Virus record (IMG/VR): IMGVR_UViG_3300032304_002326
Coordinates: 14,588 to 78,587 of that record
Strand: one strand, 5' to 3'
DNA: 64,000 nt
DNA from: a virus
Made by a program: the position numbers and the translations under genes. The notes under the pieces were generated by a model, which saw nothing but the letters and a program-made list of their open reading frames with translations, did not search any database and had not been told where the DNA came from. Below, one piece after another: positions 4,488 to 30,201 of this stretch (position 1 is its first letter; every line of letters starts with the position of its first letter).

Positions 4488-6197
4488 ATGGAATTAATAA
4501 TATGTGGTGTTGCCACAATAAAAGGTAGGGAAGAAGCATTTAAAGATACAGTGCTATCAATAATTAATCAAGTTGATAAATTAATTGTATATCAAAATGG
4601 TTACAAAGAAATTTTTGATTTTTTAAATAATGAAAAAATAGAAGTTTATAGTTCAGTAGACACTGGTGTTGATATGGGTGATGCTGGTAAATTTTACAAA
4701 TTATCTGATTACGCCAATAATTATTATTTATCGATTGATGATGATTTGATTTACCCAACTGATTATGTTTCAAATATTATTGATAATCTTAAAAATTATA
4801 ATAATTCTGTCATTATTACACATCATGGTAGAATATTAAATACAAATGCGGTATCATATTATAAAGATTCAAAACTAAAGTTTAGATGCTTAGATAATGT
4901 TGATGGTTATCAAGCCATTCATTTTCCTGGTACAGGTGTAATGGGTTTTCACACTAGTAAAGTAAGAATAACATTTGATTATTTTAAAATAGCAAATATG
5001 TGTGACATATGGGTTGGATTATACGCTAGAGAAAACAATATACCAATCATAGTTGCACCACATAAAACTGGATGGATAAAACATAGTGATAAATTTAATT
5101 TAAATAACACTATTTATAGTACTAGTATAAATAATGATGGTATTCAAAATAAATTAATTATTGATTTTAACAAATCACTAATTATAGAACCAACAGTTAA
5201 TTCATCAATTATAGAACCAACAGTTAATATTAATAATAATGAAATATGTTTATTAATTCCATCATATAATAGATACGATAAATTAGTAGAAACTTTAACA
5301 AACATAAATGAATATGATGAGTTAAATGTAATAGTATATAATGATGGCTCTAATGATGATAGATATTATAATATTGAGAGTAATTTTAAAAATGTTAAAG
5401 TATATCATAATAGTAAAAATAATGGTAAAATTGGTTATAATGATACTGTTAAATTTTTATTAAATAAAGCTATAGAATCTAAATTTAATTGGTTTATATA
5501 TTACGCTGATGATATGTTATTATGTAAAAATTTTACAACCCATGTAAAAAAATTATTTAATGATAAACAAATTGTAAATATATTTTCATTATCATCAGGT
5601 GGGTGGGGTGTTAATGGATATATCGATGGATTTTTCACCACATCAAAAAATGGTATTAAAACTATGTATAATTTAATACCAAATAAATTAAAAGATGTTG
5701 AAAATAAATCAACAGGTGTTTGGTCTAGCGTTACTAAAAAATTTAGTGCAATACATGATGAATTAGGAGGTATTAAACTATGTTGTTTAAACTATACATT
5801 ATGTCAACATTATGGAAATGATGATTCTAAATTACACCCCAAACATAGGTTAATACAACCAATAATTGCTCACAATTTTTACGATGATTTTTATGGTCAA
5901 GAAATAAAAATTATCAGTACATCTGGTACAGTAGACCAATCAAGTGGTAACATTAAAAAAAAAAGCTCAGAAGGCACATCAAGTGGTAATAAAGTTGTTA
6001 AGGAAGAACCAAAGATTCAAGAAACACCAAAACCAACCAAACCAGTTATTAATACACCAATAGCTACTGAAAAACCAAAAATAAAGAAACAAGAAATACC
6101 TGAAAAAATGCAAAAACCAAAAACAATAAATAAAACACATGGTGACTTGTTTATGGGTAAAGCTATGAAGAAAAAATTAAGATTTGGTAAAAAGTAA
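4488..6197 (+). CDS. Tandem GT-A/GT2-like glycosyltransferase with basic low-complexity C-terminal tail
   Basis: Domain 1 'YLSIDDDLIYP'; domain 2 'LLIPSYNR...VYNDGS...YADDM'; linker repeat IIEPTVN x2; K/P/E-rich tail. Confidence 0.7.
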   Translation: MELIICGVATIKGREEAFKDTVLSIINQVDKLIVYQNGYKEIFDFLNNEKIEVYSSVDTGVDMGDAGKFYKLSDYANNYYLSIDDDLIYPTDYVSNIIDNLKNYNNSVIITHHGRILNTNAVSYYKDSKLKFRCLDNVDGYQAIHFPGTGVMGFHTSKVRITFDYFKIANMCDIWVGLYARENNIPIIVAPHKTGWIKHSDKFNLNNTIYSTSINNDGIQNKLIIDFNKSLIIEPTVNSSIIEPTVNINNNEICLLIPSYNRYDKLVETLTNINEYDELNVIVYNDGSNDDRYYNIESNFKNVKVYHNSKNNGKIGYNDTVKFLLNKAIESKFNWFIYYADDMLLCKNFTTHVKKLFNDKQIVNIFSLSSGGWGVNGYIDGFFTTSKNGIKTMYNLIPNKLKDVENKSTGVWSSVTKKFSAIHDELGGIKLCCLNYTLCQHYGNDDSKLHPKHRLIQPIIAHNFYDDFYGQEIKIISTSGTVDQSSGNIKKKSSEGTSSGNKVVKEEPKIQETPKPTKPVINTPIATEKPKIKKQEIPEKMQKPKTINKTHGDLFMGKAMKKKLRFGKK

Positions 6198-14537: not shown

Positions 14538-14921
14538 ATGGCTAGGAAAAAGAAACAAGAAGTCAAAATAAATAGTGTTGACAGTCTTGAAGGATTATGT
14601 CAGGAAGCATATAATGATGCATGTGCGCAAATAAATGATGCACAAAGAACAATAAACGAAATGGTTAATTCAGCAAATCCAGAAGATGTTGATGATTTAA
14701 CCAAAATAGCTAAAGGTAAAGTCGATGCATTAAAGATTAAAGATTCAGCAATTAAAATAAAACTTGAAATTGCTAAATTACAAAATGATATTATTAAAAA
14801 CAATGGTGATGCTGATGCGGCCATTAAAGATAGAAGCAATGGTACAGCATCATTAGATGATTTTTCTAAAGTTAGAGAAATGATTAAAAATGGTCAAAAT
14901 AATAATCCAGAAAACGAATAA
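14538..14921 (+). CDS. Helical hypothetical protein (possibly terminase small subunit-like)
   Basis: 127 aa coiled-coil; TATTTAT upstream; function is a guess. Confidence 0.3.
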   Translation: MARKKKQEVKINSVDSLEGLCQEAYNDACAQINDAQRTINEMVNSANPEDVDDLTKIAKGKVDALKIKDSAIKIKLEIAKLQNDIIKNNGDADAAIKDRSNGTASLDDFSKVREMIKNGQNNNPENE

Positions 14922-20037: not shown

Positions 20038-22449
20038 TTATCTACTTACCTCTTCCCAATCTATTGAAGCATATGCTCCTAAATTTCCACCAGTTGCATC
20101 TACAGCCATTTCAATTACTATTTCAAAAGCTGTCCCCGTAAAACTATTTCTTTCAAGTTGACTAGCAAATAATGCTTCTTTTAATATATTAATACTAGGA
20201 GAACCTTGATTAGATGAATTTATATACCCTTGTGCTAATATTCTACCTCCTGAAACAGAAGCTCCCGTAAGATTATATTCAACAGATGAATCAACTCCAG
20301 CAGAAACCCACGCACCTCCTGTGATAATAGCCCCATTTACAACTCTCCATGCATAGTTTTTACCATTACCTATCCCTAATAAAGATACTGCTGTAGTTAT
20401 AATTATAGCATCTAATGCAGTAGCCTTAACCCTAATCCCCACCATTGGATAATACGTTCCAGCTACAGCAAATGTTTTAGGTGTTGTGATAGGTGTCCCA
20501 ACCGCTAGTTGAGCACCCCTAAGTTCATAACCACCTTCAGATAATGCAGTAGAACACACTTGCTTTAAAGTACTTGGTATAGCTGTTACCCCTGTATTAG
20601 TAATCTCATACCTCAAAGGTAAAGATGCTGTGGTAATATAAGTAGATGTTATTAAATTAGCGTGATTAAATCTATGACAAAGAATAAAATTACCGTCTAT
20701 AACAAAACCTAATCTAACGGTCCCTTCTCCTAACCACTCAATATCCATAAATAATATCTGAGCTTTTGTAATATCTAATACTAAACCAGAAGGCCCAGTA
20801 CCATCCATTTTATCAACATTCCACGCCGATTGATTTACTACAGATTCAGTAACTACACCAGTAACCAAACTTCTTTCTACAAAACTTAAAGTAGAGTTGT
20901 TAAGTTGTAAGTAAAGCCCATTATCACTACCAAAGTAACCTACTCTTTGTCTAAGATTAGTTTGAGCTGGAGCCATTACAAATGTATTATATATTAGTAA
21001 TGACTTACCTGGTTGGTATGATATTACTTTAAATGTTTCTCTAAGAACTTGTGAGCCACTTGTTGTATTTACATTTAAATTTACCAATCCTTCATTTGCA
21101 CTAAATACTGCTGCACCCCCACTTGCTGTAGAAGTAGCCCATAACCCATTGTCTTTATATCTATGTGAAGAATCAAATAAAGTTAATGGATTTGAAACCC
21201 TTAATCTACCAAATGCATCACCCAACATTGGATTATTAGTTAATATTGATTGATTAGATACAGTAACAGTACCATCTACAGTAATTGAATTACCACCATC
21301 TTGTATATTTACAGCAGCTGCACCAGCACCATTCTGAACTGTTATACTTTCTAATGCAGATAATGTTGCAGCATCTAATGCGACTGTACTATTAGTGACA
21401 TCAACTTTATCCGTTGCAAATACTAAATTTCTAATATCTAAATCAGTAGCATCAACTGTGATTGAATTACCACCATCTTGAATATTAACAGCTGAAGCTC
21501 CAGAAGTATTTCCAATAGTTGCATTTAAATTAGACGCTGTAGGTTGAATAATTGTGAAATTACCAGTACCAGCATTTGCAGTAACAGTACCATCTACAGT
21601 AATTGAATTACCACCATCTTGAATATTAACAGCTGATGAACCAGCACCATTCTGAACCGTTATATTTTCTAATGCAGTAAGTGTTGTAGCATCTAAAGCA
21701 ATAGTACTATTGCTAACGTCAACCTTATCTGTTGCAAATACTAAATCTCTAATATCTAAATTATTAGCATCTACAGTTATACTATTACCACCATCTTGAA
21801 TATTAACAGCTGAAGCACCAGCACCATTCTGAACCGTTATATTTTCTAATGCAGTAAGTGTTGCAGTACTTAAACTTACCGTACCATCCACAGTAATCGA
21901 ACCACCAGCGTCATCTATTGAAATAACATTACCACCATCTTGAATATTAACAGCGGAACCACCACCAGTATTATTAATCGTAACATCACCAATATCAGTA
22001 CCATTAACTAATTTATTATTAATATTAGTTAATATTGTTTGAGTATTGGTTACAGCAGTTAGTACTAATTTTTGAGTATCTTCTAAATTTATATCAGTTG
22101 TATTTGAAACTATTAAACTTAAAAAAGTATTTGGATTGATATATGATAACGGTGGTGTGGGTATTGATGGTGTGTTAGAATTTGGTAAATAATAAGTAGG
22201 TGGGTTAAATGCACCAGTTGAACTATTCCATACTCTAACCTCTAAATAAGTAACATCTAAATTATCAACAACCAATTTAGTTTCATAATCACTTTGTTGC
22301 TGAACTGCTGACAATATTGATAAAGAAGTTAACTCAGTTGCTAAATAAGCACCATTTGAATTTACCGAAATAATTTGGTCACTAGGTAAAACAACTGGGT
22401 CACTTTCAGCCATCGTTTTTTGACCTTTTGTATTTGGAAATTGATTCAT
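20038..22449 (-). CDS. Repeat-containing fibre/decoration-like structural protein with C-terminal globular domain
   Basis: Five 'AVNIQDGGN' repeats; 'DAFGRLRVSNPLTLFDS' begins a beta-rich C-terminal domain. Confidence 0.6.
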   Translation of the reverse strand: MNQFPNTKGQKTMAESDPVVLPSDQIISVNSNGAYLATELTSLSILSAVQQQSDYETKLVVDNLDVTYLEVRVWNSSTGAFNPPTYYLPNSNTPSIPTPPLSYINPNTFLSLIVSNTTDINLEDTQKLVLTAVTNTQTILTNINNKLVNGTDIGDVTINNTGGGSAVNIQDGGNVISIDDAGGSITVDGTVSLSTATLTALENITVQNGAGASAVNIQDGGNSITVDANNLDIRDLVFATDKVDVSNSTIALDATTLTALENITVQNGAGSSAVNIQDGGNSITVDGTVTANAGTGNFTIIQPTASNLNATIGNTSGASAVNIQDGGNSITVDATDLDIRNLVFATDKVDVTNSTVALDAATLSALESITVQNGAGAAAVNIQDGGNSITVDGTVTVSNQSILTNNPMLGDAFGRLRVSNPLTLFDSSHRYKDNGLWATSTASGGAAVFSANEGLVNLNVNTTSGSQVLRETFKVISYQPGKSLLIYNTFVMAPAQTNLRQRVGYFGSDNGLYLQLNNSTLSFVERSLVTGVVTESVVNQSAWNVDKMDGTGPSGLVLDITKAQILFMDIEWLGEGTVRLGFVIDGNFILCHRFNHANLITSTYITTASLPLRYEITNTGVTAIPSTLKQVCSTALSEGGYELRGAQLAVGTPITTPKTFAVAGTYYPMVGIRVKATALDAIIITTAVSLLGIGNGKNYAWRVVNGAIITGGAWVSAGVDSSVEYNLTGASVSGGRILAQGYINSSNQGSPSINILKEALFASQLERNSFTGTAFEIVIEMAVDATGGNLGAYASIDWEEVSR

Positions 22450-22665: not shown

Positions 22666-23478
22666 ATGAAAATTAGTTTAAACAATGAGGTTTCTACACC
22701 TCAAGCATTTATTGCTGTTAATAAAAGTAGAATTAAACAATATGATAAGTCTGGTGACACACCAACTTACTACCTACAAAAAGGTCAAGAATTCCAATTA
22801 GAATTATTTAATCCAACCAATGGAACCATTTTAGCTAAGATTTTCTTAAATGGAAATGCTATATCACAAGGTGGACTCGTTTTAAGACCAGGAGAGCGCA
22901 TTTTTCTAGATAGATATATCGATGTAGCCAAAAAGTTTTTATTCGACACCTACGAGGTTGAAAATACGTCTGAGGTTAAAAAAGCTATTGAAGACAATGG
23001 TGATTTTAAAGTTGAATTTTACAGAGAGTTCGTATTTAATAACTATGGTGGTTATTTAAACTTAAATAATAATACCACAGTAACCACATATAATACAAAT
23101 TTAACTAATTATAGTGATGTAAATACATATGATATTAGATGTAATTCTTTAAATGATTTTAATTCATCATTTACAAACACATCAATTAATCAAAATACAA
23201 CACCAGAAGGTCCAAACCGAAGACAATTAAAATCAAAAAAAACAAAATCAATTGAAACTGGTAGAGTTGAACAAGGTTCATCATCTAATCAAAAATTACA
23301 AACAGTAAATAAGAATTGGGAATACTCCCCATTTCATACTATTGAATATAAAATGTTACCATTATCACAAAAGATAAACACAATTGAAGATATTAATATA
23401 AAAAGATATTGCACCAATTGTGGTTCCAAATTAAAAGTAGAGTTTAAATATTGTCCATTATGTGCAACTAAAATTTAA
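22666..23478 (+). CDS. Hypothetical phage protein with C-terminal double CxxC zinc ribbon
   Basis: 'CTNCG...CPLCA'. Confidence 0.75.
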   Translation: MKISLNNEVSTPQAFIAVNKSRIKQYDKSGDTPTYYLQKGQEFQLELFNPTNGTILAKIFLNGNAISQGGLVLRPGERIFLDRYIDVAKKFLFDTYEVENTSEVKKAIEDNGDFKVEFYREFVFNNYGGYLNLNNNTTVTTYNTNLTNYSDVNTYDIRCNSLNDFNSSFTNTSINQNTTPEGPNRRQLKSKKTKSIETGRVEQGSSSNQKLQTVNKNWEYSPFHTIEYKMLPLSQKINTIEDINIKRYCTNCGSKLKVEFKYCPLCATKI

Positions 23479-24548
23479 TTTAAAAATTGGTTCCATGATT
23501 CCCAACCATTATATTTATAAACATAATCTGGTCTTTTAGGAATATATGATGGTAGATTTTTAGTTAACGTTCTCCAAATAGATTCCGATTTAATATCACA
23601 ATTTTTATTAACCCATTCCTTACTATCTTTATAAGATAAAAAATGGGTTATTTTTTTCTTCCCAATATATTTAATATTTTTTGGTAAATCATTACCAAAA
23701 AAATCATTATATGAAATCCATTCATTTTTATAAACATTAATTGGGTTTCTAGGTAAACCTAAATTTTTATTTTCTAAATACCAATTTGTGTATTCTGATT
23801 TAGTTGTTAATTTTAAATCTTTAATTATTAATTTAGCTTCAGAATAATTTATTAATTTAATTTTATTTTTTTTTATTATTAATTTTTTTTTATTAATTTT
23901 TGGTTTAGTATTTAAAAAAGAATACCAAGATTCCCAACCTTTACCTTTATAATATTGAGCTGGATTATATGGCATTTTATTTTTTCTAAAAATACGATAT
24001 TCTTCTATATTTTTAATTTTCTCTTTAATAACTATTTCTTTTAATTCATTGTAACTTAAAAAACTATTATTATTAAAAAAATCAGTCCAGTTCTTCCAAT
24101 CTCTATTTTTATATACTGAATCTGGTCTTTTAGGAAAACATTCGGGTAATTCACCTAATTTTATCCATTTACGCCATTTTTTTTCTGAATTAATGTTAGG
24201 TATATTATTTAACACCCATTCTTTCATTTCTACTAATGTTGATTCATATTTAGAATAACTACTACCTTCACCACCTTTACTTAAATTAGTTAAATTAGGT
24301 ATTTGCCCTATCCAATATTTTTCTCGTTCTACCCAATTATCTTCATTACATTCTTCTATAATATGTATTTTTAATTCTTCATTATTATTTAAAACTTTAC
24401 GAATCCAATTATTCTTATGTGTTATTATACCTCGTTTAGCTTCACAAATGTGGTCATTTTTCCTAATTATTGGTCTATATGATTTACCAATATATCTTAT
24501 TATATTATCATACCCTGATAATCCATAAATATAAATTTTATCACTCAT
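23475..24548 (-). mobile_element. Free-standing GIY-YIG homing endonuclease with 'P-x-x-P-x-x-x-Y-K-x-x-x-W-x-x-W' repeats
   Basis: 'IYIYGL...IRYIGKS', 'REKYWI', 'NLSKGGEG'; four C-terminal repeats; start at MSDKIY. Confidence 0.85.
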
Positions 24549-24605
24549 GATGTTTTTATTATAAATATACAAAAATTTATAAAAATCACATTTTAGATAA
24601 AACTT

Positions 24606-24665
24606 TGTGGTTCTAAATTAGGTAAGGGTGATAAATTTTGTGCTAACTGCGGCACAAAAGCTTAA
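24606..24665 (+). pseudogene. Orphaned original 3' end of gene 22666 (CGSKLGKGDKFCANCGTKA*)
   Basis: Same length and register as current end CGSKLKVEFKYCPLCATKI* (23419-23478); followed by terminator. Confidence 0.85.
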
Positions 24666-24692
24666 ATAAAAATAACTGAGTTAACTATATAA

Positions 24693-24716
24693 GGGGAGTT
24701 TTTACTCCCTTTTTTA
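24693..24716 (+). terminator. Intrinsic terminator
   Basis: GGGAGT-TTTT-ACTCCC followed by T run. Confidence 0.75.
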
Positions 24717-24745
24717 TTTAAATAAGTTTTTTTATTAAAAAAAAA

Positions 24746-24790: not shown

Positions 24791-24964
24791 ATGGAAAATA
24801 CTAACATGTTATCTAGCAATAGTGCTATTGCTTCTGAAGTAATCAAATTGGAAAAGAAATATCCTAATAATATGGATTTAGGTTTTGCAATTAGAAAATT
24901 GTTACTTGAAAATCGTGAAAAATACGATTTATTATTAAAAAGTATTGAAAACAAAAAAGGCTAG
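24791..24964 (+). CDS. Small hypothetical protein (57 aa, MENTNMLSSNSAIASEVIKLEKKYPNNMDLGFAIRK...), not in ORF track
   Basis: Open frame directly downstream of the promoter. Confidence 0.6.
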   Translation: MENTNMLSSNSAIASEVIKLEKKYPNNMDLGFAIRKLLLENREKYDLLLKSIENKKG

Positions 24965-25068
24965 ATAAACTCTAGCCTTTTATATGAATTAGATTTTTAT
25001 TATCTTAATTCGTTAATGTTAAATGTTGGAACACCATCAACTTTTACGTGACCGTAGAATCTGTTGTT
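24948..25068 (-). repeat. Displaced copy of major capsid gene 3' end (NNRFYGHVKVDGVPTFNINELR*), 3' UTR and terminator
   Basis: Direct repeat of 25872-25993; identical peptide, 12 synonymous codon differences. Confidence 0.92.
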
Positions 25069-25079
25069 AAAACTTGCTT

Positions 25080-25853
25080 TTATAATAATTTATACATAAA
25101 AATATCATCTTCATCATCTGTTGTTCTATATTTAGAAAAACCATACTTACTGTAAATTTGATAAAGTATATCTGAGTCTATTTCCGAATCATCATCAACC
25201 CTCAAAAATAATGATTTATATCCTTTATTTTTGCCGAAATCATATAACCAATTCATAGTTTCTGTCATATAATTTTTACCTCTAAATTCTGGCAAAATTT
25301 TAATGTCAACAATAGCTAAAGGATTTGGTAAATTAACATCAATCCAATAATATTCTTTCCTCGCTGGCGATAATATTATATAACCCACTTTTTCACCATT
25401 AACAATAATATCATTATATTCATCAGTTGATGGGTTTTCTATATTTATTGATTCATTTAATGAATCAGAACCAGTTCCTTTATATATTAATTCAATTGAA
25501 TTTGGTGGGATATTTTCAAAAGTGATTATTCGTTTATCTTCTAAATCAAAATTAGGGTCAATATACCATTTGTTTTTAAGTTTGGTCGTATCTATTTTGT
25601 ATATATCATCATCATAGGTTGAATCCCACCAATCTTTTTTATTATCACTATTAACCGCAAATATGACTTTACCTTCAATAGGTGTATTAGATAACCAAGT
25701 TTCACTCTTTCCCTTTGGAATTAAACCTTCTTTTGATATGACATCCCTAAAATACGAATTTGATGTATGATACACATACTTATTTGGGATTATTTCTTTT
25801 AATTTACGATTATTTAACGATTCTCTCAGTAACTTTTGTATTAATGTTTTCAT
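25080..25853 (-). CDS. Two-domain protein: ADP-ribosyltransferase/Tpt1-like fold plus GNAT acetyltransferase, with 'IQKLLRE' leader
   Basis: 'VYHTS...ISKEGLIP...ENIPP' ART-like; 'ILPEFRGKNY...YSKYGF' GNAT; internal 'SLNES'. Confidence 0.55.
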   Translation of the reverse strand: MKTLIQKLLRESLNNRKLKEIIPNKYVYHTSNSYFRDVISKEGLIPKGKSETWLSNTPIEGKVIFAVNSDNKKDWWDSTYDDDIYKIDTTKLKNKWYIDPNFDLEDKRIITFENIPPNSIELIYKGTGSDSLNESINIENPSTDEYNDIIVNGEKVGYIILSPARKEYYWIDVNLPNPLAIVDIKILPEFRGKNYMTETMNWLYDFGKNKGYKSLFLRVDDDSEIDSDILYQIYSKYGFSKYRTTDDEDDIFMYKLL

Positions 25854-25879
25854 ACCTATAAATATCTATATAAAACAAA

Positions 25880-25906
25880 AAAGGCTAGATTAACTTCTAG
25901 CCTTTT
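25880..25906 (-). terminator. Terminator of major capsid gene (duplicated near 24957-24980)
   Basis: AAGGCTAGA/TCTAGCCTT stem followed by T run on minus strand. Confidence 0.75.
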
Positions 25907-25924
25907 ATATGAATTAGATTTTTA

Positions 25925-27712
25925 TTATCTTAATTCGTTGATATTGAATGTAGGTACACCGTCCACTTTTACATGACCATAGAACCTATTATTCACAACT
26001 TTCTTCGCATATCTAGTCATGATACCTTTAACTGGTGCGAAGTTGAATGGATTGTACATTGTAGGTGTAAGTTGCATTGGCACGTATGGTGCGTAGATGT
26101 AACCTGTATCTAACAATGATTTTCCTTTATGACCGATAATCGCTGAGTAGAAAGGTGCATATGGGTCACGGTACACTTGGTAACGTCCGCTTAATGAACC
26201 GATTCTTTCAATACCCATGTTGTATTGGTCTTGCTCTGGGTTAGCATCACTTACGTGGAAGTATTCTAAATCATCCATGATTGCAGATATTTCAGAAGAT
26301 ACTACGATAAAGTTAGCACCACCTCTAAGAGTTGATTTGTGAATTTGAGCTGAAATTTGGTTAATTCTAGTAATGAAAGTTTGATTCCACTCTTTTTGTG
26401 TATATGGTGATGCAGCAGAAGAAGCTTTTCTCCATCCGTTGTAATCCCATCTTAATTGCCATGCAGCAGCTTTTCTTAAGTCTCTTAAGATTTCACGGTC
26501 AATTTCAGCAGCAACTTGCTCAGAAAGCATTGCAGTTAATTCAGCTTCAGCATCGATGTTGTGGAATGCACTAACGTCTTGCGCTAACTCTGGAGACCAT
26601 GTAGCTCTTAATTTTCTTTCTTCTACAGAAACAACAACTTCATCCAATTTGAATGATACTTCACCCATTTCAGTTTCTAACTCTAATGAATCGTAACGAC
26701 CCCAAGCGATAAAGAAATCAGCAGCAGTTTCAGTTGTACCAGTAGTACCAATATAACCATCATAAGTTGATGTAGTACCAACTACTGGGTGTGTTAAATC
26801 CATTTCAACATAAAGAAAACCTTTAGCATCACAGATATCTTTATAATCTACGATACCTCTACCATATTTTTGAGTTACTAATCTAAAAGGAACTTGAGAA
26901 CCTTGAGCGATAATTACATTACCATCTGAGTCTAATAAATCTACGTTAGAAACAATGTTTAAAGATGCTAAGAAAGCTTCTGAATCCATTTCATTTCCGT
27001 CTGGACCTGTTAATCTACCAGCATTAACTGAAGAGAAACCAGAGATAGCCATAATAGCGTTTCTTAAAGTTCCGTCAGTTGCTAATGGTAAAGCACCAAA
27101 GTTAGCAGCAACAGTAAATTGACCATTAGTACCTAATGTTTGTAAAGCACCAAAACCAGCAACGATATTTAATGTACCTTTAGAATTATCAAATAATCCG
27201 TCATTGTAGAAAATATCATATAAGTTTTTACCTTCAAATGGAGTCATAACACAGTTACCTAATGTACTAACACATGATGGTAATTGGTCACCCATTGAAG
27301 TGTGTGCAGAATATACAGAGTTTTCACTACCGTAAATATAATCGTTAGTTCCAGGATTTCCTAAACCGTCAACTCTAGATGATGTAACTGGTACGAAGAA
27401 GAACAATTTACCGATTGGCATGTTCATAGCTTGTACAGATACTACATCATTAGCTAATAATTTAGAGAATACTCTTCTTACGATTGGGAAAACTACAGTT
27501 TCAAAAGAACCTGATGACGTAGAGTCAGTAGCTTCTGTTAAAATTGAAGATGCTTGGTTTTCATATAACTGAGCAACGTTTTCTTTAACGTGGCCTTTAA
27601 GACCTTCTAAGAATCCTAATGATTCCCATTTTGATTGGGTTTGTCTACGGATTTCCTTCATGTGGTTTAATCCGATGTTCCCAACTTGTCCTGAATTTAA
27701 AAATTGTGACAT
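25925..27712 (-). CDS. Major capsid protein, T4 gp23-like
   Basis: 'VQAMNMPIGKLF', 'RKLRATWSPELAQD', 'DAEAELT.MLSE..AEIDREI', 'GANFIV.S', 'YAPYVP', 'GIMTRY'. Confidence 0.95.
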   Translation of the reverse strand: MSQFLNSGQVGNIGLNHMKEIRRQTQSKWESLGFLEGLKGHVKENVAQLYENQASSILTEATDSTSSGSFETVVFPIVRRVFSKLLANDVVSVQAMNMPIGKLFFFVPVTSSRVDGLGNPGTNDYIYGSENSVYSAHTSMGDQLPSCVSTLGNCVMTPFEGKNLYDIFYNDGLFDNSKGTLNIVAGFGALQTLGTNGQFTVAANFGALPLATDGTLRNAIMAISGFSSVNAGRLTGPDGNEMDSEAFLASLNIVSNVDLLDSDGNVIIAQGSQVPFRLVTQKYGRGIVDYKDICDAKGFLYVEMDLTHPVVGTTSTYDGYIGTTGTTETAADFFIAWGRYDSLELETEMGEVSFKLDEVVVSVEERKLRATWSPELAQDVSAFHNIDAEAELTAMLSEQVAAEIDREILRDLRKAAAWQLRWDYNGWRKASSAASPYTQKEWNQTFITRINQISAQIHKSTLRGGANFIVVSSEISAIMDDLEYFHVSDANPEQDQYNMGIERIGSLSGRYQVYRDPYAPFYSAIIGHKGKSLLDTGYIYAPYVPMQLTPTMYNPFNFAPVKGIMTRYAKKVVNNRFYGHVKVDGVPTFNINELR

Positions 27713-29237: not shown

Positions 29238-29939
29238 TTAATCTAATAAAAATTTATCTAAACCATCGATTAATGTATTTTTTTTATTTTCTACTGATTC
29301 AACAAATGGTCTAGCTTCCATTTTATCTTTAAACATCCATGAACCAGGTGTGCTAGGTGCGGTTACAACATCCCAACAAATAATTTCAAAATCCTCTTGA
29401 ACTATGTGGTCATCACCAACTTCCCTTAATGAACCAACACCTCTAGATGATACACCAATCATAATATTATTTCTTAAAAGATTGGCAACTTCATCACCTT
29501 TAGTTGATACAATTCCATAATTAATATATCCTGGAGTCATTAATATTTCCATTTTACCCATTAATGTTTTACCTTCCCACCAAGTTTCAATTATATTGTG
29601 TGATACTCTATCACCAGCAATAATTGAAGACTCTGGGTGGTCTAATTCACCAATAGCTCTTCTTTCTCTAATTAATTCTTGATATCTATCAACTTCTCTT
29701 TTTAAAATAGATTCTGGGTATATTCTACCATTTCTATTTTTTACACCATATTTCTGTAAGACTACATAAACCACTAATGGTTCGTGAACTGATGGATGTA
29801 TACCAGATTCTAATTTTTTCATCTCAGTTACGAATGGTTTATTTCTTTTATCATCTGGTGAAATATAACCAGCATCAGATTCAATCATAATCATTCTTTC
29901 ACCAGTAATATTGGTTTTATTTATCTTGTAATCACTCAT
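29238..29939 (-). CDS. Prohead protease, T4 gp21-like
   Basis: 'KNRNGRIYP', 'GELDHP', 'VSH', 'GVSSRGVGSL', 'WDVVTAPSTPGS'. Confidence 0.93.
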   Translation of the reverse strand: MSDYKINKTNITGERMIMIESDAGYISPDDKRNKPFVTEMKKLESGIHPSVHEPLVVYVVLQKYGVKNRNGRIYPESILKREVDRYQELIRERRAIGELDHPESSIIAGDRVSHNIIETWWEGKTLMGKMEILMTPGYINYGIVSTKGDEVANLLRNNIMIGVSSRGVGSLREVGDDHIVQEDFEIICWDVVTAPSTPGSWMFKDKMEARPFVESVENKKNTLIDGLDKFLLD

Positions 29940-29940
29940 A

Positions 29941-30201
29941 TCAATTAATTTTTACCCATTTATAATTATAGTATGTCCTATTTTCTTTGTTACAAACATT
30001 AGATATACTACTTTGTTTTATTTTTAAAGTATTACTGTATTTAGATTTTCTAATATGTTCTTTAAACCTTACATCAATATTATTTGATTTACCAATATAT
30101 CTAACTAAATTGGTTAATGGGTCAACTAACATATAAATGTAAACTACATTTAATTTATTTTCCACACTTTGACCAGCCTTTAATATTTTAATATCTGACA
30201 T
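29941..30201 (-). pseudogene. Internally deleted GIY-YIG endonuclease remnant fused to probable old protease start
   Basis: 'VYIYML...VRYIGKS' joined to NUMOD1-like 'SSISNVC...YKW' in only 86 aa; N-terminus MSDIKILK resembles protease MSDYKINK. Confidence 0.6.

Follow-up and report, generated by a model that had tools for sequence, protein, structure and literature searches.

Phage homing endonucleases are usually viewed as selfish genes that spread themselves together with a little flanking DNA. Here we describe a locus in a 64,000-nucleotide (nt) stretch of viral DNA (positions 14,588 to 78,587 of the IMG/VR virus record IMGVR_UViG_3300032304_002326; hereafter the window), in which the 3′ end of the major capsid gene is present twice, on either side of a gene for a protein that is no nuclease. 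The locus suggests that the breaks made by such enzymes can install whole unrelated accessory genes in the end of an essential gene, harmlessly, because the incoming piece supplies a spare gene end. With codons counted back from the end of the capsid gene, we read the locus, at a probability of roughly 0.6, as the footprint of the repair of an endonuclease break between codons -23 and -22 (-23/-22), that is, as an end-replacing insertion with which an enzyme gene would have hitch-hiked.

Several described systems share features with this locus. In fungal mitochondria, for example those of Tremella fuciformis, mobile endonuclease open reading frames (ORFs) and introns make terminal duplications of host genes (PMC7315562). 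As in the window, the insert in these cases brings its own part of the host gene, the reading frame enters the incoming copy, the resident copy is left stranded, and the two copies differ. Unlike in the fungal cases, the gene concerned here is a phage major capsid gene, the cargo is ART-like/GNAT without an endonuclease, both copies encode the same 22 residues, and there is no intron. In T4-like phages, free-standing seg and mob endonucleases are known for intronless homing, marker exclusion and co-conversion of flanking sequence, the carrier's own site being different, and T4 segD lies between genes 23 and 24 (PMC2988022). The relatives of the present phage resemble this situation in having a sporadic nuclease gene at a fixed intergenic site by an essential gene, with an adjoining cluster of differences. 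By contrast, the seg and mob genes are undescribed with a duplicated gene end, the family found here is HNH/EndoVII-like and not GIY-YIG, and the window has the patch of differences without the nuclease gene.

An endonuclease may also mobilize a segment other than its own gene, as T4 mobE does with the defunct I-TevIII intron (trans-homing; PMC2790892). In the reading that we favor for the window, a segment without a working endonuclease would likewise have been spread by the break of a nearby or co-infecting endonuclease; whereas trans-homing by mobE was established by genetics, the present case is argued from comparative sequence, and its passenger is a protein-coding accessory gene. F-CphI of cyanophage S-PM2 is a homing endonuclease with an EndoVII motif (DHHRN) (PMC6083498), which is free-standing, has an Endo VII-type catalytic domain and lies by a conserved gene; the 228-amino-acid (aa) family of the relatives, which matches a phrog annotated ‘endonuclease VII’, is likened to it by description and may be of the same kind. 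In phage T6, SegB drives segmental amplification, in which a break and microhomology repair lead to a tandem duplication with a useful gene (PMC13096335). The likeness lies in a homing-endonuclease break that generates a gene-carrying duplication, but the T6 arrays consist of identical 718-bp units under laboratory selection, while the window has a single insertion with diverged copies in a natural genome. The novelty of the locus is thus that known kinds of event, namely end-replacing endonuclease insertion and intronless homing, are met in a phage capsid gene, with a non-nuclease passenger and a recurrent break point.

The duplicated capsid end consists of 22 codons and the stop codon, a 22-nt stretch of 3′ untranslated region (UTR) and an intrinsic terminator, and it lies on the minus strand once in frame (25993..25872) and once as an orphan (25068..24948), the insert amounting to ~925 bp (Table 1). 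Both copies translate to NNRFYGHVKVDGVPTFNINELR followed by the stop codon. Their coding parts differ at exactly 12 sites, every one a synonymous third-position change within the first 54 nt. The 46 nt past this patch, which comprise the five last codons including the stop and the UTR up to the stem, are identical, and the hairpin loops are one indel and one substitution apart, with an identical stem and T-run. Both hairpins score as intrinsic terminators (three in 1.6 kb against 0.3 expected in the terminator scan), with folding z-scores of -3.5 (copy 1, -15.6 kcal/mol) and -4.3. The initial annotation of this DNA, made from the sequence alone, had described two copies bracketing ORF 25080..25853, with one peptide, 12 synonymous and no non-synonymous differences, and UTRs that differ in the hairpin loop alone; its coordinates hold and its count was reproduced exactly. 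The orphan starts 11 nt after the stop codon of the cargo gene. Shifted by 1 nt, 9 of these 11 nt agree with capsid codons -27 to -24, and the orphan may therefore extend further left in decayed form. A whole-window repeat scan found no other gene-end duplication of the capsid-end kind. Read-through from the cargo gene into the orphan was considered and rejected, as the two frames differ, with an offset of 14 nt.

Table 1. Features of the duplicated capsid end and of neighboring genes, in positions of the window.
Feature	Position	Strand	Basis
Major capsid gene, 595 aa, gp23-like	25925..27712	-	Pfam PF07068 Gp23 4.5e-71; phrog_138 major head protein 1.2e-64
In-frame capsid end, 22 codons and stop, incoming allele; divergent patch 25940-25994	25925..25993	-	sequence comparison
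3′ UTR and intrinsic terminator, copy 1 (stem-loop 25879-25906)	25872..25924	-	terminator scan, folding; UTR same as that of the orphan and of L083
Spacer with ATATTTATA motif, 3 nt before the cargo start codon	25854..25871	-	read from sequence
Cargo gene, 257 aa, predicted ART fold and GNAT, between the copies	25080..25853	-	profiles, structure model
Right junction filler AAGCAAGTTTT, from cargo stop codon to orphan	25069..25079	-	read from alignments
Orphan capsid end, codons -22 to stop, displaced resident copy, out of frame with the cargo gene	25000..25068	-	matches empty-site relatives
3′ UTR and terminator, copy 2 (stem-loop 24955-24981), running on into the resident downstream flank	24948..24999	-	terminator scan, folding
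Zinc-ribbon gene, convergent	22666..23478	+	compared with L083 and L228
Replacement 3′ end (14 codons) of the zinc-ribbon gene	23419..23478	+	window ...CGSKLKVEFKYCPLCATKI and stop, against ...CGSKLGKG.KFCANCGTKA and stop in L083 and L228
GIY-YIG-like gene, 357 aa, three repeat modules, antisense cargo of the second insertion	23475..24548	-	weak profile matches; absent from L083 and L228
Stranded original 3′ end, UTR and terminator of the zinc-ribbon gene, encoding CGSKLGKGDKFCANCGTKA and stop	24605..24719	+	UTR and terminator as in L083 and L228
Prohead protease gene	29238..29939	-	profile matches

Two relatives of the window have empty sites. One is L083, an IMG/VR relative of 12.4 kb with 89-96% nt identity to the window, and the other is L228, a metagenome contig of 16 kb with up to 99% identity; both were located via short DNA patterns. 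Each has a single capsid end and is without the 257-aa gene, and past the terminator each continues like the window beyond its orphan, where the stretch that follows 24948 is 95% identical to L228 and 90% to L083. Of the 12 sites that distinguish the two copies, 10 in L083 and 9 in L228 have the letter of the orphan. This agreement of their single capsid end and of the sequence beyond it identifies the orphan as the resident end, which makes the in-frame copy the one that came with the insert. The initial annotation had proposed this polarity and had predicted empty-site relatives with an orphan-type capsid end, and both expectations are borne out. We also considered whether L228 could be a deletion chimera, produced by a single crossover between the two copies, and rejected this since the variant sites interleave. 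The capsid gene of L083 (1855-3639) is broken into two frames of 455 and 110 aa, for which a frameshift or an assembly error is possible.

The two copies also differ in how common their alleles are. Capsid relatives in IMG/VR number at least 597, and we compared the copies with 152 distinct capsid ends of relatives. Over 54 nt, the orphan matches natural ends at up to 53 positions (53/54 in L102 and 51/54 in L083) and also matches L228, whereas the in-frame copy reaches 46/54 at best and, of the 12 sites that differ, has the less common codon at 9, in line with the earlier observation that the orphan uses codons typical of the capsid gene and the in-frame copy unusual ones. The in-frame allele was not found in any other IMG/VR record with degenerate peptide patterns. 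A lysine that is common to both copies occurs in only one of the 152 ends, and additionally in L228, which was found later as the sole match of a lysine-only pattern in the metagenome collection.

It is worth noting that 12 synonymous and no replacement differences are, by themselves, no evidence of deliberate recoding. The orphan peptide, with R for K, naturally occurs in at least 15 nucleotide versions, which lie 1-13 of 54 nt from the orphan, and a synonymous-only count is therefore unremarkable. The oddity is a mosaic: a patch as divergent as the most distant relatives with the same peptide interrupts a gene that elsewhere is ~98% identical to L083, and the UTR after it is that of the window's own lineage. 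Compared with L083, the capsid gene shows about one difference per 60 nt in its last 600 nt and then 11 differing positions within 55 nt (25994-25940); counted by codon, 11 of 18 differ to the right of the break point and 2 of 23 to the left. Targeted adenine mutagenesis, of the type produced by diversity-generating retroelements, was rejected as a source of the patch, as the 12 changes mix T/C, G/A, G/T and A/T.

The break point recurs in G001, a complete 362-kb relative with terminal repeats from another sample, which was located by a degenerate C-terminal peptide pattern. Its capsid gene ends normally, and 2.1 kb beyond it lies an orphan that begins at the same codon (-22) as that of the window. 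This orphan differs from the in-frame end of G001 at 10 codons, always synonymously, and is followed by a different UTR and terminator of its own. The insert contains three nuclease genes, namely a 229-aa HNH/EndoVII-like gene on the capsid strand and two opposite-strand genes with DUF723/DUF4379 zinc-finger repeats (DUF723/Vsr-like), which match phrog_559 (1e-50) and phrog_9084 (4e-32), annotated as ‘HNH endonuclease’ and ‘homing endonuclease’. A homologue search found no cargo homologue in G001. Different cargos at the same junction, as the initial annotation had anticipated, are therefore found, and the insert encodes its putative homing endonuclease in G001 and not in the window, where the cargo is no nuclease.

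The junction itself is also shared. Homology is found between the 28 nt left of the window orphan, a stretch that takes in the final codons of the cargo gene, and the 30 nt left of its counterpart in G001 (p ~2e-4, or 0.02%, against random 30-mers of the loci). The part matching capsid codons -27 to -23 is decayed; codons -22 to -1, on the other hand, are pristine in the window and in G001. A search with the junction pattern had G001 as its sole match, and tblastn of the capsid C-terminus against 220 loci gave no further full orphan. These observations bear on whether the locus could be a chimera of two strains made in metagenome assembly, as might be suspected of a metagenomic contig in which the copies differ like strain variants. 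A mix of strains cannot create the junction from cargo stop codon to orphan, which recurs in the complete G001 from another sample, and the intact cargo gene, which has a start motif of its own, is a member of a widespread family; we regard such an artefact as very improbable. Far from the capsid gene of G001, in a 164-aa open frame, there is another capsid-like stretch (G001:C1:52576-52761), with 48% identity to capsid residues 366-427.

A nuclease family is associated with the same site in other relatives. Homologues of the 229-aa gene of G001, encoding a 228-aa HNH/EndoVII-like protein, lie 85-139 nt past the capsid stop codon in 32 of the 146 relatives in which nuclease-gene presence was scored (22%), the other 114 being non-carriers. 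The 228-aa protein matches phrog_1035 ‘endonuclease VII’ (1.1e-14, residues 79-226) and has a readable H-x-D-H ... N-L-x-P-L motif, with no Pfam match at E up to 1. Of the 32 carriers, 13 have a remnant of capsid codons -22 to -17 at 62-74 nt past the stop codon, compared with 0 of the 114 non-carriers (Fisher 3e-10). The remnant sits just before the promoter-like motif of the nuclease gene, and its left edge is again codon -22. Sporadic presence at one fixed site among relatives is what characterizes the locus of a free-standing homing endonuclease.

The nuclease gene is also linked to a local cluster of differences in the flanking capsid gene, as would be expected of co-conversion or resistance. 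In carriers whose capsid body is at least 95% like that of the nearest non-carrier, the identity of codons -28 to -5 has a median of 87% (seven of eight between 85 and 89%, one at 100%), compared with a median of 100% in pairs of non-carriers (Mann-Whitney p 0.001). The seven closest carrier pairs show 0.06 differing codons per codon upstream of -60, 0.36 from -45 to -23, 0.34 from -22 to -5 and 0.14 in the last four, with 131 of these differing codons synonymous and 6 not. A patch of this kind is present in the window too, there without the nuclease gene and solely to the right of the break point. A further relative, L011, is likewise without the nuclease gene, yet it keeps the capsid-codon remnant and a TTGACTTT promoter-like motif after the terminator (5850-5960), and its capsid end is 76% identical to the nearest relative, compared with 98% in the body. 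Apparently the nuclease gene was lost and the linked allele retained, so that such alleles would outlive the gene. The link to a site-specific nuclease that was originally drawn from the synonymous differences gains indirect support from this family at the locus in 22% of relatives and from its synonymous patch.

The carriers also bear on a second suggestion of the initial annotation, that the in-frame end escapes recombinational excision. Here, synonymous differences would have been selected to cut the homology of the repeats and guard the cargo against deletion. T4-like phages recombine very actively, and the differences are restricted to the repeated coding part, both of which fit this idea. 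Against it, the copies still share 46 nt of perfect identity as well as the stem and the T-run, and it is implausible that a gene elsewhere ~98% identical to L083 gained twelve point changes independently while the orphan stayed intact; carriers of the nuclease gene, moreover, show a like patch without a long repeat. We therefore consider selection of this kind improbable.

A more serious alternative is that two co-infecting relatives underwent a single illegitimate recombination or unequal crossover, homologous on the left and joined by chance on the right, with no nuclease involved and with ordinary divergence between the alleles. The peptide is conserved, and natural alleles differ at up to 13 of 54 nt without an amino-acid change; the region after the capsid gene is a variable accessory-gene island, in which several genes have an N-terminal leader of the cargo type; and the insert is without a nuclease gene. 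All of this is compatible with a one-off event. However, G001 and the remnants of 13 carriers put the right break point at this same codon, the junction is common to the window and G001, and the divergent tract begins exactly at the break point and gives way to a UTR of the window's own lineage. On this evidence, a chance event appears unlikely.

In the break-repair reading that we prefer, an HNH/EndoVII-like enzyme from a co-infecting relative would have cut the resident allele at or near the -23/-22 boundary. The left end would then have primed copying from a donor with an uncut allele, through the capsid end of the donor, the cargo and an inherited junction, and the new strand would have rejoined the right end of the recipient, which begins at codon -22 and would be the present orphan. 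As the locus now stands, the capsid frame runs into the incoming end, leaving the resident end and its terminator untranslated. The insert holds an alternative version of these 22 codons, the UTR and terminator after them, a promoter-like motif, the cargo gene and a short decayed junction. A promoter role for the ATATTTATA motif is suggested by relatives, in which motifs of the TATTTATA type also stand ahead of endonuclease genes and further downstream genes. In the in-frame copy, the synonymous differences would mark a donor allele that the enzyme cannot cut and that is kept divergent at the recognition site. The enzyme gene would be a passenger moved in trans, which is plausible by analogy with the mobilization of a defunct element by mobE.

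Besides the intact cargo gene, four features of the locus could be explained in this way. The differences would be confined to coding DNA because continued attack by the enzyme maintains divergence there, while the UTR is free to homogenize. The patch would be one-sided because the new sequence was laid rightward from the -23/-22 break. The orphans and the remnants would share a left edge because the break recurs at this position. Finally, the decayed junction at -27 to -23 would lie beside a pristine, lineage-matched stretch from -22 to -1 because the junction was inherited and the orphan came from the recipient.

Several points weigh against this reading. The HNH/EndoVII-like gene has no copy in the window or in its 78.6-kb record, which has an estimated completeness of 23%. 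The in-frame allele is about equally distant from the alleles of carriers and of non-carriers (42-46 of 54), and the comparisons between carriers and non-carriers are only partly free of shared ancestry. The near-identical UTR and terminator, together with the shared rare lysine, mean that one transfer from a distant donor is insufficient, so that a same-lineage donor or later homogenization is needed. In carriers, moreover, the remnant lies mostly upstream of the nuclease gene and not downstream, and no capsid-end remnant was found after the HNH-type gene, which a simple end-replacement model fails to explain. As a lead, the upstream remnant may go back to an older, nested event or serve as a binding site, given that the operator of I-TevI resembles its homing site.

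A wider view can be put forward only tentatively. The break site at -23/-22 could be a shared landing pad in giant freshwater phages, at which cassettes with an uncuttable capsid end deliver arbitrary accessory genes, driven in trans by the endonucleases of other members. Each transfer would then renew the orphan, and the inherited junction would mark one old element that swaps its cargo, the cargo in the window being a possible ADP-ribosyl- or acetyl-transferase effector. If the break-repair reading is true, it offers a concrete route by which accessory and counter-defence genes may pass between related phages, and it would account for synonymous changes being sharply clustered where structural genes end. 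There is also a practical warning, in that gene-end duplicates in phage metagenome assemblies may be real and not artefacts.

A second end replacement lies 400 nt from the capsid orphan, in the zinc-ribbon gene 22666..23478, which in the window ends in ...CGSKLKVEFKYCPLCATKI before its stop codon. L083 and L228 have the uninterrupted form, and the insertion duplicates just 16 nt. The cargo of this insertion is the GIY-YIG-like gene, whose first 103 aa match PF01541 with E 0.0011 and 19.6 bits, below the cut-off of 22.6, and phrog_5123 with E 0.015, and which holds internal 77-nt repeats. To judge from these alignments, the site is a textbook end-replacing cassette with a nuclease-like cargo and indicates that the mechanism operates in this genome.

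A further alternative is that the GIY-YIG-like gene supplies the nuclease that cuts the capsid end and mobilized the cassette, and its proximity to the orphan, its absence from both empty-site relatives and its weak GIY-YIG matches would suit that role. Because its own end-replacement site, and hence its expected target, lies in the zinc-ribbon gene, it is a poor candidate for the capsid site. In addition, it is not found beside the orphan of G001 or in the carriers of the HNH-type gene, and it is quite improbable as the agent. At the corresponding spot in L083 (939-1580, minus strand) there is a gene for a 213-aa DNA/RNA non-specific endonuclease (PF01223, 1.6e-28; EndoG-like by PDB match).

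The cargo of the capsid insertion had been described as an ART-like/GNAT enzyme, and the profile and structure comparisons agree. Its C-terminal half (residues ~130-257) matches PF00583 with 30.2 bits against a cut-off of 20.7 and has a GNAT fold (Foldseek 1e-5 to Naa50/NatC; VIA Z 11.7). The structure model has a predicted local distance difference test score (pLDDT) of 81.7, while the N-domain folded alone is poor (pLDDT 60.6). In the model, residues 17-124 superpose on residues 86-180 of 9ld3_A, which binds ADP-ribose, with Z 10.7, a root mean square deviation of 2.2, 88 aligned residues and 24% identity. The N-domain matches phrog_5470 ‘RNA 2′-phosphotransferase’ (E 2.2e-4) over profile positions 87-180 of 183, and a sequence-based search of solved structures with the N-domain profile gave no match. 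Compared with Tpt1/KptA, only the NAD-binding ART-fold C-lobe is matched, and no counterpart of the N-terminal RNA-binding lobe was seen. The cargo thus appears to combine an ART fold like the Tpt1/KptA C-lobe with GNAT, which by their folds alone suggest its biochemical role.

The ART-GNAT fusion is a widespread family, with 170 cargo homologues, of which the full-length ones are 55-81% identical and all end in ...FMYKLL. Searches of IMG/VR with the cargo yielded stand-alone N-domain homologues alone, none adjoining a capsid gene, and the N-domain occurs by itself in other giant-phage contigs, within runs of small genes that share leaders. Such runs of small genes with near-identical N-terminal leaders were seen in L084 (3820-7992) and L086 (5600-7280) and after the nuclease gene in L103, L138 and L079. 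The leaders include MKYIKLFEQFINES..., M..FKKY.EFLNE... and MK.LI.KLLRE..., and the start of the cargo gene is alike. These shared leaders could serve as recombination points or as a sorting signal.

The head module of the window is of T4 type and contains, besides the capsid and prohead protease genes, a 462-aa gene on the minus strand; together with relatives that sit on contigs of 345-362 kb, it indicates a giant phage. Among isolated phages, a search of the phage collection yielded just one 84-nt match, to Flavobacterium phages. Twenty sequencing runs match, mostly labeled as freshwater or lake metagenomes (best share 0.77), labels from which we draw no habitat claim.

Other differences were noted in the vicinity. 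A 57-aa ORF on the plus strand (24791-24964) converges on the terminator of the orphan, and its position is kept in L083 (1645..1818); if this ORF is real, its terminator is that of the stranded copy, used from the opposite side. Within ORF 20038..22449, which encodes an 803-aa virion protein (phrog_1645), ~2.1 kb (20097-22211) is without a counterpart in L228, where 22212 is joined to 20096, and this segment holds 266-nt internal repeats at 21261-22021. A further ~280 nt (29886-30164), which separate the prohead protease gene from the adjoining gene, are absent from L083 and hold most of an 86-aa ORF (29941..30201).

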